Below, piece after piece: positions 2,168-6,638 of a stretch of 64,000 nucleotides of DNA. The position numbers and the translations under genes are program-made. Position 1 is the stretch's first letter. Every line of letters starts with the position of its first letter. This DNA is from an uncultured Actinomycetota bacterium (lineage in GTDB: Bacteria > Actinomycetota > Actinomycetes > JACCUZ01), in assembly GCA_963746175.1 (NCBI GenBank), contig CAVVAH010000001.1:1158062-1222061 (forward strand). The letters run 5' to 3'. Under the pieces are notes generated by a model. That model saw only the letters and a list, made by a program, of their open reading frames with translations, was not told the DNA's origin and ran no database searches.

Positions 2168-2932
2168 TCAGCGGCGGCTGGCGAGCTCCTCGGCCGACGT
2201 CCAGTCGGGCCGGCCCATGTCCGCCTGCTCGCCGGCGCTCGCCGGTGGCTGGTCGGCTGGTCCGGGCCGTACGCGCTGCGACAGCCGCCGGGTCCCGACC
2301 GCGCTGATGGCGACACCGGCGAGGAACGCGCCGGCCACCAGCAGCCACCAGGCCCCTCCGTTCGTGCCCGCCTCGCGTGGCACGTCGGCGGCCGCGGGGG
2401 TCGAGGCAGCTGGCGACGGGGCAGCGGCGGCCGGTTCCGGCTCCTGCTGCGGGTCGGCCGCCGCTCCGCCGGGGCCGGTGCCGACACCGAGCCGGTCGAG
2501 CAGAGCCACCAGCGCCTTCGGCTCGGCGGGCCGGTGCCAGGACACCGGGACCGTCAGGACGTCCGGCCCGAAGCTCACCTGCGTCCCGACCCAGGGGCCG
2601 CCGGGCGCTCCGACGTAGATCCGGTCGACCCGCCACACCATCACGTCGTGGATCAGCCAGGTCACGTTCACCTGGGACCCGCTCGCGTGGTCCTCCTCCG
2701 CGCGGCCGCCGGTCGCGCCGCCCGGGCTCCCGCCGTCGCCGAGCAGCCGGGTCAGCTCGTCGTACTCGGGGTCGTCGTAGTAGAGCGCGGCGGTGCCGCC
2801 CCCGCCGGGCGCCACCAGCAGGACGCTGGTCGGGCCGCCGGCCTGCGCCGGCCCGGCGGCGACCGACAGGGTGGCGAGGGTGGCGACAGCAAGTGTCACG
2901 AGTGCGGCACGGACGGGGCGAGCGGTGCGCAT
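2168..2932 (-). CDS. secreted, C-terminally membrane-anchored hypothetical protein
   Basis: ATG at 2932 (MRTARPVRAALVTLAVATLATLSVAAGPAQA, signal peptide). C-terminal TM helix AWWLLVAGAFLAGVAISAV, then a short cytoplasmic tail. It lies downstream of the anti-sigma gene on the same strand. Confidence 0.55.
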   Translation of the reverse strand: MRTARPVRAALVTLAVATLATLSVAAGPAQAGGPTSVLLVAPGGGGTAALYYDDPEYDELTRLLGDGGSPGGATGGRAEEDHASGSQVNVTWLIHDVMVWRVDRIYVGAPGGPWVGTQVSFGPDVLTVPVSWHRPAEPKALVALLDRLGVGTGPGGAAADPQQEPEPAAAAPSPAASTPAAADVPREAGTNGGAWWLLVAGAFLAGVAISAVGTRRLSQRVRPGPADQPPASAGEQADMGRPDWTSAEELASRR

Positions 2933-3002
2933 GTCGGCCTCCGGGCGGATCGGATCGACGGCGGGGCACGCCTGGTACACCGCTGCTGCGGCCGGAGTTC
3001 CG

Positions 3003-3788
3003 TCAGCGCGCCGACCCGGCGATCTCGCGAGCCCGCGACAGCGAGACGTCACCCTCCAGGCGCAGCGTGGTGCGCGCCCGGTGCTCCCAGATCAGGGTGT
3101 GGCCGGCCAGTCGCGCGGTGCCCGTGCGCGGGGTGCCGTCCCGGTCCAGCCACACCACCTCGTGCGGCGCGGCGAACCAGAGGGCGAAGTCGCCGCCGAC
3201 CTCGGTGAACTGCACCCCGGCGGCCGACTTCGCGAACGTGTAGTCCAGCCGACCGTCGAACTCGTCGAGCCGCAGCGCGCCGTCCGGGCCGGTCCAGGTC
3301 ATGGACAGCACGCGCCGGTCGTCCGAGACCTCCACGTCGTCCGGGTGCCCGAGCGCCCGGGGCACGACGGGCTCGAAGGCCACCAGCCGCCGTGCCTGTG
3401 CCAGGGTCGTCCCCCCGTCGGCCGGCGGCGGCGCGGGTGCCGTCGACGCGGCCGGGCCGGCGCCGCGGTGCACCAGCACACCGGCGAAGCCGAACCAGTC
3501 GGCCACGGCGGCACGCACCGGTGGCGCAGCGGCGAGCCCGACGAGAACGGCCAGACCGACGGCGGCCACCGCCCGGCGGCGACCGGCGAGGCGGTCGCGG
3601 AGCCCGCCGGTGGCGCGGGCCCGGCTCGGAGCTGCCCGGCCCGGAACCGGCATCAGCGCGACCTCGTCCCGGACCCGGGTCGCGAGGGCCGGTCCAGGCG
3701 CCGTCACGGGCACGGTCCGCCCCAGCGCCAGCAGGTCCTCCACCAGCGCGACGTACGGCGCCGGCGAGGATGCTCGGGTCTCAGGCAC
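3003..3788 (-). CDS. anti-sigma factor (single-pass membrane protein with a DUF4367-like extracytoplasmic domain)
   Basis: ORF 3003..3788, overlapping the sigma stop by 8 nt. It has an N-terminal cytoplasmic segment, a TM helix (AVAAVGLAVLVGLAAAPPV) and a C-terminal domain of the type paired with ECF sigmas. Confidence 0.7.
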   Translation of the reverse strand: MPETRASSPAPYVALVEDLLALGRTVPVTAPGPALATRVRDEVALMPVPGRAAPSRARATGGLRDRLAGRRRAVAAVGLAVLVGLAAAPPVRAAVADWFGFAGVLVHRGAGPAASTAPAPPPADGGTTLAQARRLVAFEPVVPRALGHPDDVEVSDDRRVLSMTWTGPDGALRLDEFDGRLDYTFAKSAAGVQFTEVGGDFALWFAAPHEVVWLDRDGTPRTGTARLAGHTLIWEHRARTTLRLEGDVSLSRAREIAGSAR

Positions 3789-4290
3789 GGCGCGCCTCCG
3801 TCCCGACGGGCGCCGCCCAGGGCTCGGCGGCCAGCCGGGCCAGCGCGCGGTGCAACCGGGACTTCACCGTGCCGCGCGGCCAGCCCAGCGCGGCCGCGGT
3901 CTCGGCCTCGTCGAGGTCCAGCAGGTAGCGGAAGGTCACGACCCGCCGCTGGTCGTCCGGCAGCCTGGACAGAGCACGAACCAGGTCGGCCGTGCGCTCG
4001 GCGGACAACGCGGCCGAGGCGGGGTCGTCGGTGGCCGCCGCGAGCAGCAACGGCTCCGCCAGCGCCCACGCGGAGCGCTCCCGAGCGCGCCGGCGACCGG
4101 CGGAACGGTGCAGGTTGCTGGTCTCGTTCGCGACGATGCGCAGCAGCCACGGGCGGAACGGGGCGCCGTCGCGGAACCGTCCGAGCGCGCCGTACGCCTT
4201 CACGAAAGCCTCCTGCACCACGTCCTCCGCGTCCGACCCGGCACCGAGAAGGGCCGCGGCCCGCACGGCCACGGGGGCGTGGCGACGCAC
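3781..4290 (-). CDS. ECF-type RNA polymerase sigma factor. Minimal coordinates are from the first canonical start (GTG 4290); the conserved N-terminal region continues upstream to 4431 with no ATG/GTG/TTG.
   Basis: Region 2 (DAEDVVQEAFVKAY...RPWLLRIVANE) and region 4 (DQRRVVTFRYLLDLDEAETAAALGWPRGTVKSRLHRALARL) motifs are present. Upstream in the same frame are 47 sense codons reading ...ISVEPEDSEVLARARGGDADAYAELV, which look like sigma region 1.2/2.1. They reach back to the TGA of the preceding kinase gene. Confidence 0.8.
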   Translation of the reverse strand: MRRHAPVAVRAAALLGAGSDAEDVVQEAFVKAYGALGRFRDGAPFRPWLLRIVANETSNLHRSAGRRRARERSAWALAEPLLLAAATDDPASAALSAERTADLVRALSRLPDDQRRVVTFRYLLDLDEAETAAALGWPRGTVKSRLHRALARLAAEPWAAPVGTEARRA

Positions 4291-4431
4291 CAGCTCGGCG
4301 TACGCGTCGGCATCGCCGCCGCGGGCGCGGGCCAGGACCTCGCTGTCCTCAGGCTCGACGCTGATGGGCTCCTCCGGGGGCTGCCCTACGTCTACACCGC
4401 GGACGACGGTGGCGTTCCCGGCTCCGGGAGA

Positions 4432-4854
4432 TCAGCCCGGCGCAGGGACCGGCTCCCCCGCCCGCACCGAGACGTCGGGTGCAGCCGCGGAGACGACGCA
4501 CCAGACCTCCTTGCCGCCGTCGGGGAGCCGGTCGACGCCCCACTCGGCGGCGAGCCGGTCGACCAGTGCGATACCGCGTCCGTCGGTGCGCTCGAGCCCG
4601 GCGTCGACCAGGGTGGGACCTCCCGGGCCGCGGTCGGCGACGGCGACACGTACACCGTCGGGGAGCAGTGCCAGCACCAGGGTGATCGTCCCCGCGCCGT
4701 GCCTGACCGCGTTGGCCACCAGCTCGCTCACGACGAGCTCGACGTCACCGACGACGTCGGCACCGCGGGAGCGGCACACGTCCCGGACCTGGCGACGCGC
4801 CGCAGCCGCCGCATCGGGACGTCGTCGCAGCGTGCGGACGACGGAGCTGGTCAC
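4432..4854 (-). CDS. HATPase_c anti-sigma regulatory factor / Ser-Thr protein kinase (RsbW-like), 140 aa
   Basis: ORF 4432..4854. Motifs ELVANAVRHG, DRGPGG and GRGIALVD match GHKL ATPase N-, G1- and G2-boxes typical of RsbW/SpoIIAB-type kinases. Confidence 0.75.
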   Translation of the reverse strand: MTSSVVRTLRRRPDAAAAARRQVRDVCRSRGADVVGDVELVVSELVANAVRHGAGTITLVLALLPDGVRVAVADRGPGGPTLVDAGLERTDGRGIALVDRLAAEWGVDRLPDGGKEVWCVVSAAAPDVSVRAGEPVPAPG

Positions 4855-4947
4855 GGATGCCTCACCTGGAGGAGCGAAGGGCGTCCACCGGGTCCGGGGC
4901 GAGACGAAGGTCAGCGGTCAGCGGCTCTGTGCCCGCTCCGGCGAAAA

Positions 4948-5694
4948 CTACTCCCCGCTTGGTCGACCGGGCACGCTGTCGAGGTCGAGGTCGCGGGCCA
5001 CGACCTGGCGGGCGACCTCGGAGAGCGGCAGCCCGTGGCTCCGGGCGAAGCCACGCAGCAGCTGGAAGGCGGCGTCGACGTGCACGCCGGCGCGCTCCGC
5101 GAGCACGCCCTTGGCCTGCTCGATGACGATGCGGCTGCTCAGCGCCTCCTGGAGCTGCCGGGCCAGCAGCTCGCGCCGGCTGCTGCCCCGTTCCTGGAGG
5201 ATGCCGATCGTCGCGACGTCGGCCAGGGCCTGCGCCAGCGACCGGTCCTCCTCGACCAACGCTCCCGGCTCGGCCCGGAACAGGTTCAGCGCGCCGATCG
5301 TCTCGCTCCGCAGCCTCAGCGGCAGTGCGACCACCGAGCGGAACCCCGCTGCCGTCGCCTCGGCCCCGAACCGCGGCCACGTCGGTGGCTGGTCGGCGGC
5401 CAGGTCGTCGACGACCACCGGCTCACCGCTGGCGTAGCAGTCGAGGCAGGGCCCCTCGTCGTTCTGCACCTCGAAGAGCTCGAGCAGCCGAACCTGCTCG
5501 GTCGAGCTCGCGGCGACGACCAGCCGTCCCGAGCCGTCGGCCAGCATCAGCCCGGCCTCGTCCACGTCGAGCAGGGCGATGCAGTGCGTCGCGAGCGAGT
5601 GCAGGAAGTCGAGGACGTCGAAGTCGTCGACGAGCGTGTCCGCCAGATCGACGAACGCTTCGGCGAGCCGCTCCTCGCGCAAGCCTCCCGACAT
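4948..5694 (-). CDS. GAF-ANTAR RNA-binding regulator, 248 aa
   Basis: C-terminal 248 codons of ORF 4948..6948 from the ATG at 5694, with a GGAGGA Shine-Dalgarno sequence upstream. A GAF domain (LALPLRLRSETIGALNLFR) precedes an ANTAR domain (LQEALSSRIVIEQAKGVLAERAGVHVDAAFQLLRGFARSHG). Confidence 0.8.
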   Translation of the reverse strand: MSGGLREERLAEAFVDLADTLVDDFDVLDFLHSLATHCIALLDVDEAGLMLADGSGRLVVAASSTEQVRLLELFEVQNDEGPCLDCYASGEPVVVDDLAADQPPTWPRFGAEATAAGFRSVVALPLRLRSETIGALNLFRAEPGALVEEDRSLAQALADVATIGILQERGSSRRELLARQLQEALSSRIVIEQAKGVLAERAGVHVDAAFQLLRGFARSHGLPLSEVARQVVARDLDLDSVPGRPSGE

Positions 5695-5723
5695 GCCACC
5701 ACGATAATCCTCCGCCACACCCT

Positions 5724-6431
5724 TCACACCTCCTCGCCGTCCAGCCTCGTCCGACGGGCCAGCACCTCGCGGGCGACCTCCTGCAGGGTGCGGCCCTCCT
5801 GGTAGGCGCGCCCGCGCAGCGCCGCGAAGGCCGCGGTCCCGTCCACTTCCAGCTGCACCATCACCATGCCGGTGGCCTGGTGCACGACGCTCGTCGCGGC
5901 CCAGCCCGGCTCGAGGATCTCGCGGACGGCCTCCGGGACGGCGTTCTGCAGCTGCAGCAGCACCTCGACGGCCGCCGTAGCGTAGTCCTCGGCCTCGGCG
6001 AGCTCGGCGTCCGTGAGGTCGCCGGGGTCGCGCCGGTAGAGGTCCATCGCGCCGAGCCTCAGCCGTCCGACCGTCAGCGGCAGGGCGAACGACGCCCGGA
6101 CGCCCAGCGTGGTGGCCTCGGGCACGAAGACGGGCCACCGGTCGGCGATTTCCGGGCCCGTGATGTCTGCGACGAGCACCGGCGCACCGGTGCTCACCGC
6201 GTCGACGCACGGACCCTGTCCGAGCAGCACCTGGAGGTCCTCGATCCGGCCGCTCACCACATCGGTCGCCGCCACCCGCGTGTGCCGCCCGGGGCCGGCC
6301 GTGACAGAGAGGCCTACGCCGTCGACCCGCAGGGAGCCGGCCGCCAGGGCGCACACGTGCGCGACGCGTGCGGTGCCCTCGGCTGCCAGCTCGGCCGAGC
6401 GGACGGTCTGGAGGACCCGCGTGCTCGACAT
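5724..6431 (-). CDS. GAF-ANTAR RNA-binding regulator (paralog), 235 aa
   Basis: ORF 5724..6458 with the start taken at ATG 6431 (MSSTRVLQTV...). It has the same GAF + ANTAR architecture (MVMVQLEVDGTAAFAALRGRAYQEGRTLQEVA). Confidence 0.75.
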   Translation of the reverse strand: MSSTRVLQTVRSAELAAEGTARVAHVCALAAGSLRVDGVGLSVTAGPGRHTRVAATDVVSGRIEDLQVLLGQGPCVDAVSTGAPVLVADITGPEIADRWPVFVPEATTLGVRASFALPLTVGRLRLGAMDLYRRDPGDLTDAELAEAEDYATAAVEVLLQLQNAVPEAVREILEPGWAATSVVHQATGMVMVQLEVDGTAAFAALRGRAYQEGRTLQEVAREVLARRTRLDGEEV

Positions 6432-6638
6432 CTGCGACCTCCGACCGGATAGACCCACCGGCTGATGGCGAGGTGCGCCGGAGCCGGCGCGACCGACCGC
6501 AGCACCCGCACCGTGCTGCGCGGGCCCGGCAACCTCTGCCGCTGGACCCGCTCGGCTGGTGCTCGCGGCCCGCCGGGGTCCGGGGCGTGCCCCCAGTCAA
6601 GCACCTTCGGCACACCCGCGCCGGAGCGCCGCGGCCCG

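Follow-up and report, generated by a model that had tools for sequence, protein, structure and literature searches.

Comparison of orthologs points to an AUC start codon in an actinobacterial extracytoplasmic function sigma factor gene

In Escherichia coli, the codons AUC, AUA, AUU, and CUG initiate translation at approximately 1–2% of the level of AUG, and an N-terminal methionine is still made (bioRxiv 10.1101/063800). Among sigma factor genes, the closest described case is sigR of Streptomyces, which starts at GTC behind an extended AGGAGGTG ribosome-binding site and whose GTC start is repressed by the initiation factor IF3 (Feeney et al. 2017, mBio, PMC5472188). Its partner RsrA is produced in excess from a ribosome-binding site of its own, and exchange of the sigR GTC for a canonical codon renders the regulon constitutive (PMC5472188). 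A re-classification of sigma factors with extracytoplasmic function (ECF) carries the general remark that N-terminal extensions go missed where starts are non-canonical. No description of an AUC or other near-cognate start was found in the literature for the sigma family considered here, and the terms "ATC start codon" and "sigma factor" together gave nothing. The subject of this work is an ECF sigma factor gene on the minus strand of a 64,000-nucleotide stretch from an uncultured Actinomycetota bacterium (GenBank assembly GCA_963746175.1, contig CAVVAH010000001.1, forward-strand positions 1,158,062 to 1,222,061), hereafter the window, in which position 1 is the first letter and the G+C content is 73%. 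Comparison with orthologous loci indicates that the main start of this gene is very probably an ATC codon (AUC in the transcript) at 4363–4365, which would redefine the coding sequence as 3781–4365 (194 amino acids, with the stop codon TGA at 3783–3781).

The locus resembles SigR–RsrA (ECF12) in encoding an ECF sigma factor with a start other than ATG, GTG, or TTG behind an unusually strong Shine–Dalgarno sequence, in what is presumably an autoregulatory promoter, and in an overlapping downstream partner with its own ribosome-binding site and canonical start; in both cases gene callers shift the sigma start to nearby canonical codons. It differs in that the sigma factor belongs to another ECF family and is no ortholog of SigR or SigH. 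The codon is AUC here and CUG, AUA, or ACG in relatives, with GTC, the sigR codon, only in some Streptomyces orthologs, and the partner is membrane-bound and carries an RseB-like domain, whereas RsrA is a cytoplasmic zinc anti-sigma factor. The sigR GTC start has been reported only in Streptomyces; the near-cognate start proposed here from sequence spans several actinobacterial orders. A second point of reference is the RpoE–RseA–RseB system of E. coli, in which the rpoE start is canonical. At the present locus a single polypeptide joins a membrane anchor to an RseB-like domain, no RseA-like anti-sigma domain was detected in it, and the sequence identity of its fold matches is low (8–11%). Finally, infC, the gene for IF3, starts at AUU (cited in PMC5472188) and likewise has a conserved near-cognate AUN codon at which initiation should depend on discrimination by IF3. 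infC encodes that very discriminator, and a direct feedback loop results, whereas the gene described here encodes a sigma factor whose dependence on IF3 is a prediction.

The sigma gene follows a small kinase gene, with which it shares a reading frame. After the kinase stop codon (TGA, 4434–4432), another 47 sense codons (SPGAGNATVVRGVDVGQPPEEPISVEPEDSEVLARARGGDADAYAELV) follow in this frame up to a GTG at 4288–4290, and none of the 47 is ATG, GTG, or TTG; ATC 4365 and CTG 4335 (4333–4335) are the only near-cognates that they include in frame. This reading of the sequence agrees with a preliminary description of the locus, which had pointed out that the two genes lie in one frame across a single TGA with no canonical start ahead of GTG 4290, and had listed non-canonical initiation at ATC 4365 as one candidate explanation among several. 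Of these, that candidate now has much the strongest support.

The 194-residue protein contains Sigma70_r2 (Pfam, E = 4e-15) and Sigma70_r4_2 (E = 5e-17) domains and scores 89.9 bits against the NCBIfam model TIGR02937 for ECF sigma-70 factors (cutoff 42.9). With only sigma-2 and sigma-4 domains, it is an ECF (group 4) sigma factor. No named equivalog model is matched above its cutoff, SigH_actino included (69.9 bits against 251.55), and neither an ECF group number nor a named Streptomyces ortholog could be assigned. In a translation read through from the kinase, in which ATC and GTG 4290 correspond to residues 23 and 48, NCBIfam sigma profiles align from residues 25–42. With ATC counted as codon 1, E. 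coli RpoE (1or7) aligns from D7 of the query, so that the two proteins have N termini of equal length. Orthologs also keep the pattern [ED][ED].E[VI]LAR[VA]R.GD..AYAELV in the region upstream of GTG 4290. The profile matches, the RpoE alignment, and the conservation among orthologs together identify the residues encoded ahead of GTG 4290 as genuine sigma sequence, as the preliminary description had proposed. GTG 4290, as the first canonical codon, is the choice of open reading frame finders and would yield an N-terminally truncated sigma factor of 169 amino acids lacking ISVEPEDSEVLARARGGDADAYAEL. Such a start would, however, delete 25 conserved residues matching the first helix and the beginning of the second helix of RpoE sigma-2; it has no evident Shine–Dalgarno sequence, and the codon encodes an internal valine that is conserved in orthologs within the motif ELV. 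The gene cannot truly begin at GTG 4290, and a truncated protein of this kind is highly improbable.

To compare the region across species, loci were fetched around relatives of the sigma factor, whose homologs number in the thousands in the database search. The set comprised 80 genomic loci, 80 metagenomic loci, and a few single look-ups, giving 163 loci for the kinase and partner searches; a 95%-identical relative (the P0001 contig) was compared by means of its gene table. Of the first 81 loci, 77 carry an exact GGAAC-N16-GTGTA motif upstream of the sigma gene, and allowing a spacer of 15–17 nucleotides raised this to 134 of 160. In the window, the motif matches exactly at 4393–4418, with a -35 element GGAAC at 4414–4418 that begins 13 nucleotides past the kinase stop codon and a -10 element GTGTAG at 4392–4397. 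A Shine–Dalgarno sequence, GGAGGAG, follows at 4369–4375, its GGAGG core lying 5 nucleotides ahead of ATC. Because promoter and Shine–Dalgarno sequence are both found inside the 47 codons, the apparent bridge between the two genes is made up of an ECF-type promoter and, after it, a short 5′ untranslated region (UTR) rather than a protein linker. The promoter contains an AAC-bearing -35 element and is presumably autoregulated. Transcription is predicted to start approximately 7 nucleotides past the -10 element, near 4384, because orthologous target genes place an ATG 6–7 nucleotides after GTGTAN; this would leave the sigma transcript with a 5′ UTR of approximately 19 nucleotides. An Rfam scan of 3600–5100 (E up to 1) returned no match to a known leader or riboswitch, and the fold predicted for the start region and its 5′ UTR was no more stable than that of shuffled sequences (z = 0.57), which gives no indication that RNA structure helps initiation.

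Upstream of the ATC column the orthologs show neither amino acid conservation nor codon periodicity, and the position of the promoter relative to the reading frame differs from locus to locus. Conservation as protein holds for the part from ATC onward and not for the 22 codons between TGA and ATC, which are promoter and UTR. The same observations bear on programmed read-through of the TGA at 4434–4432, which would produce a kinase–sigma fusion and has in its favor the single stop codon that separates two open reading frames in one frame. The 22 intervening codons are, however, conserved as nucleotide motifs and not as amino acids, their frames vary and contain in-frame stops in orthologs, none of which has the kinase upstream (0 of 163 loci), and a single-nucleotide indel breaks the phasing in one assembly. 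Long open runs are also common at this base composition: runs of at least 47 codons after a stop codon that lack both a stop and a canonical start make up 21% of all post-stop runs in the window, and the chance that two genes are phased in the same frame is 1 in 3. Taken with the G+C content of 73%, these frequencies mean that neither the common frame nor the length of the open stretch exceeds what would be expected by chance. A fusion by read-through, as had been considered, can be put aside as having almost no probability.

Evidence for the start codon itself comes from the non-Streptomyces-type orthologs, with the 134 loci that carry the promoter as the scope of the summary. In these orthologs, a GGAG or GGAGG core is followed 4–10 nucleotides downstream by an in-frame near-cognate codon, the conserved spacing ahead of ATC being 4–7 nucleotides. 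At this Shine–Dalgarno-linked position, 56 loci have ATC, 16 have CTG, 2–3 have ATA, and approximately 5 have ACG, and two further loci (L015 and L099) have ATC behind a weaker Shine–Dalgarno sequence. A canonical codon was the best Shine–Dalgarno-linked codon in none. The ACG codon, a fourth near-cognate at the start column, occurs in a small clade (L076, L109, L111, L148, and L155), where it lies 6 nucleotides past GAGGAG. The near-cognate column, together with promoter and Shine–Dalgarno sequence, is kept across Nocardioides, Kribbella, Pseudonocardiales, and many metagenome-assembled genomes, with ATC retained in orthologs down to approximately 55% protein identity. Among cultured relatives, Kribbella species and Nocardioides sp. 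BE266 have ATC, and Nocardioides sp. SR21 has CTG.

Canonical alternatives are absent from many of these loci: in 57, the interval from the -10 element to the conserved L-A-R-V-R contains no in-frame ATG, GTG, or TTG, and 31 of the 57 are also closed upstream by an in-frame stop, leaving no canonical start at all. In many cases the -10 element supplies this stop with its own TAG, and L015 and L099 have a TGA in the codon just ahead of ATC. Of 63 ATC trinucleotides in the interval, 60 are in frame, with distances to the GD motif that take nine different whole-codon values. Column entropies at the three codon positions go from 1.5/1.5/1.4 ahead of the start column to 0.70/0.79/1.04 between this column and L and to 0.28/0.25/0.87 past L, so that variability falls and a three-base periodicity appears exactly at the start column. 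The codons of A-R-V-R vary synonymously among orthologs, and starts at the GTG that frequently occurs within ARVR would therefore truncate a translated sequence. In two loci, NCBI annotation already sets the start at this column, at ATC in L083 and at CTG in L082.

The breadth of this conservation also bears on the suggestion that ATC arose from ATG by a sequencing error or a recent mutation, perhaps in a decaying gene. ATC is indeed one substitution away from ATG. However, the codon is kept in at least 56 orthologs of several genera, with ATG at this column in none, and the sigma open reading frame is intact and under purifying selection. In addition, two more independent assemblies of the same organism agree exactly with the window in ATC, Shine–Dalgarno sequence, and promoter (three assemblies in total). 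An origin by error or recent mutation is thus barely conceivable.

CTG 4335 (L11) is the other in-frame near-cognate codon of the window, and translation could begin there instead of, or besides, AUC 4365, giving a sigma factor that begins M-ARARGGDADAY. The codon could serve as a minor or alternative start, and the same column is GTG or TTG in some orthologs. Others likewise have CTG there, but in still others it is GTC or ATC. CTG 4335 also lacks a well spaced Shine–Dalgarno sequence, the nearest candidates being GAGG 2 nucleotides and GAGGA 10 nucleotides upstream, both within acidic codons, and the strong, conserved Shine–Dalgarno sequence is spaced for ATC rather than for CTG. The acidic E-D-x-E codons that precede CTG are moreover constrained at the amino acid level, with indels in multiples of three. 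Initiation at CUG 4335 is for these reasons considered unlikely, though it is less remote than the other alternatives to AUC 4365.

Several points weigh against the assignment of the start to AUC 4365. It is drawn from comparison, and the promoter as well as the start of transcription have been predicted from sequence. The coding periodicity is modest in the nine codons after ATC, and CTG 4335 could act as an additional start. Some orthologs have a canonical GTG slightly downstream (at -3, -6/-7, or -11 from the GD motif) that may be used in those species. Lastly, a GTG lies in frame 7 nucleotides past the -10 element in 47 of 48 Streptomyces loci, with eleven different open reading frame lengths. 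A separate observation concerns L164 (350–420; P0008/P0016 clade), where a GTG lies five codons downstream of a kept GGAGG-N4-ATC; gene callers pick the GTG, and either codon or both may serve.

The GTG after the -10 element suggests that the Streptomyces orthologs have a different, leaderless start and a long form of the protein. These loci (L020–L080) also contain an internal codon linked to GGAGGGGGG as a Shine–Dalgarno sequence, which is ATC in 19, GTC in 16, and GCC in 4. Streptomyces orthologs may combine a leaderless GUG with a Shine–Dalgarno-driven AUC or GUC in one frame and so make two isoforms, comparable to SigR and SigR′.

Downstream of the sigma gene, and overlapping its stop codon by 8 nucleotides, lies a partner gene (3003–3788, minus strand) that encodes a single-pass membrane protein of 261 amino acids. 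It starts at GTG 3788 and has its own Shine–Dalgarno sequence, GGAGG at 3795–3799, 6 nucleotides ahead of this start. The partner is present in 138 of 163 loci and overlaps the sigma 3′ end by 4–38 nucleotides in 118 of 119. Its start is canonical in all 119 (GTG in 72, ATG in 42, and TTG in 5), and a Shine–Dalgarno-like core precedes it in 83. The protein has a short cytoplasmic N terminus, one transmembrane helix, and an RseB/MucB-like extracytoplasmic domain; the HxxxCxxC motif of zinc anti-sigma factors does not occur in it. It is a probable anti-sigma factor or sensor.

Only two exact GGAAC-N16-GTGTA matches occur in the 64-kb window, and both belong to this locus. The second (2976–3001, minus strand) stands directly past the partner stop codon, and a second copy was likewise found in 80 of 105 orthologous loci. 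In the window it precedes a third gene of the module (2168–2932, minus strand), which encodes 254 amino acids with a signal-peptide-like N terminus and starts at ATG 2932, 5 nucleotides past GGAGG at 2942–2938. The extent of this gene was taken from a gene call in L168 and from direct reading, as the automatic start finder chose spurious high-G+C open reading frames in some loci, the window included. In orthologs, the third gene has either a Shine–Dalgarno sequence with ATG or GTG or an ATG 6–7 nucleotides after GTGTAN, which implies a leaderless transcript. Its product has no Pfam match, and it is probably a direct member of the regulon. Because the third gene combines the same promoter with GGAGG, a 5-nucleotide spacing, and ATG, the non-canonical codon is specific to the sigma gene. 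The locus thereby contains a built-in contrast, in which one type of promoter and Shine–Dalgarno sequence serves ATG on a target gene and ATC on the sigma gene.

These features can be assembled into a working model. The sigma gene would form a self-contained unit under its own ECF-type promoter, and the strong Shine–Dalgarno sequence in its 5′ UTR of approximately 19 nucleotides would direct initiation to AUC 4365, yielding the 194-residue sigma factor with a complete sigma-2 N terminus. The weak AUC start would hold synthesis of the sigma factor low relative to that of the co-transcribed, overlapping membrane partner. With its own Shine–Dalgarno sequence and a canonical GTG, the partner, as the presumed anti-sigma factor, would stay in excess, which would keep a positive-feedback promoter from running away and the system off until a signal arrives. 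The AUC start of the sigma gene might in addition depend on IF3. This rationale from stoichiometry and IF3, which is modeled on SigR–RsrA, is given an even chance of being correct. On the opposite side, no anti-sigma domain was recognized in the partner by Pfam, NCBIfam, or PDB sequence searches, so that the stoichiometric argument is one of analogy.

A broader proposal is put forward only tentatively. The whole ECF family may have been selected for an obligatorily weak, IF3-sensitive start, with turnover among AUC, CUG, AUA, and ACG and with AUG never retained; each of these four codons is one step away from AUG. If this were true, initiation would be a regulated input that links the output of the sigma factor to IF3 activity or to translational status. 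Limitation of an ECF sigma factor by a non-canonical start has previously been shown only for Streptomyces sigR, and the AUC start, if borne out, would add a second ECF family, widespread among actinobacteria and with other codons. The locus would then offer a tractable system for examining whether weak start codons set the ratio of sigma to anti-sigma factor more generally.

The corrected gene model, in which the sigma factor has 194 amino acids from ATC 4365 and not 169 from GTG 4290, also has consequences for annotation. Among the 120 closest cluster representatives of the sigma factor (P0001–P0120), annotated N termini are spread over approximately 40 different positions, as counted from the GD motif. 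The truncating V/M-R-x-G-D, which corresponds to a GTG inside ARVR, is the annotated beginning in 38 of the 120, and only two NCBI entries start at the ATC/CTG column. Annotated N termini so scattered and so often truncated indicate that the start of this sigma family is systematically mis-annotated on a large scale.

The gene upstream (4432–4854, minus strand) encodes a small RsbW-like kinase or anti-sigma-type protein of 140 amino acids with a GTG start and a HATPase_c_2 domain (Pfam PF13581, E = 7.7e-15). In the preliminary description it had been grouped with the sigma and anti-sigma factors in a single module, which the comparison does not bear out. No homolog of the kinase was found in the 163 related loci by tblastn with the kinase protein. 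The 95%-identical relative has the same two GAF–ANTAR genes that precede the kinase in the window, and its annotated sigma start follows 183 nucleotides after them, leaving no room for a kinase gene. The kinase appears to have been inserted in the present genome or deleted in this relative. It resembles the anti-sigma serine kinases RsbW and SpoIIAB in being a small protein made up of a HATPase_c_2 domain only, but the NCBIfam models for these two match it weakly (16–18 bits against cutoffs of 135–155). RsbW and SpoIIAB act on sigma factors of the SigB/SigF type and not on ECF sigma factors, and the linkage of the present kinase to this sigma gene is not conserved. A role as an RsbW/SpoIIAB-type regulator of this sigma factor is not supported, as the family scores lie below cutoff and the adjacency recurs in no ortholog locus. 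The kinase is, on the sequences compared, a lineage-specific neighbor unrelated to the sigma module, and the frame that it shares with the sigma gene is coincidental.

Coupling by termination and reinitiation, in which ribosomes that finish the kinase at TGA 4432 would reinitiate downstream and so tie sigma synthesis to translation of the kinase, had also been suggested. The 13 nucleotides between the TGA and the -35 element leave no room for a terminator, and kinase transcripts probably do run into the sigma gene. However, 67 nucleotides separate the stop codon from ATC, with no overlap and with a promoter in between, and the sigma gene has a promoter and Shine–Dalgarno sequence of its own. 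The kinase is, furthermore, missing from all 163 loci and from the 95%-identical relative, yet the near-cognate start is kept, and one assembly of the same organism ends the kinase open reading frame in another frame. With the arrangement itself not conserved, such coupling is very improbable.

The assembly in question, L167 (ERZ25039511), is a second assembly of the same organism and is 98.3% identical to the window, with 20 gaps over 4.8 kb. Between 1320 and 1540 of L167 (4260–4470 of the window), a single-nucleotide insertion (GGGCTCGA) removes the kinase TGA, so that the open reading frame extends to 168 amino acids and ends 28 codons later in another frame. Either an error of assembly or variation between strains may account for the insertion. 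Further upstream of the kinase in the window (4948–6458, minus strand), the GAF–ANTAR genes are arranged as a slightly overlapping tandem pair, at approximately 4948–5748 and 5724–6458.

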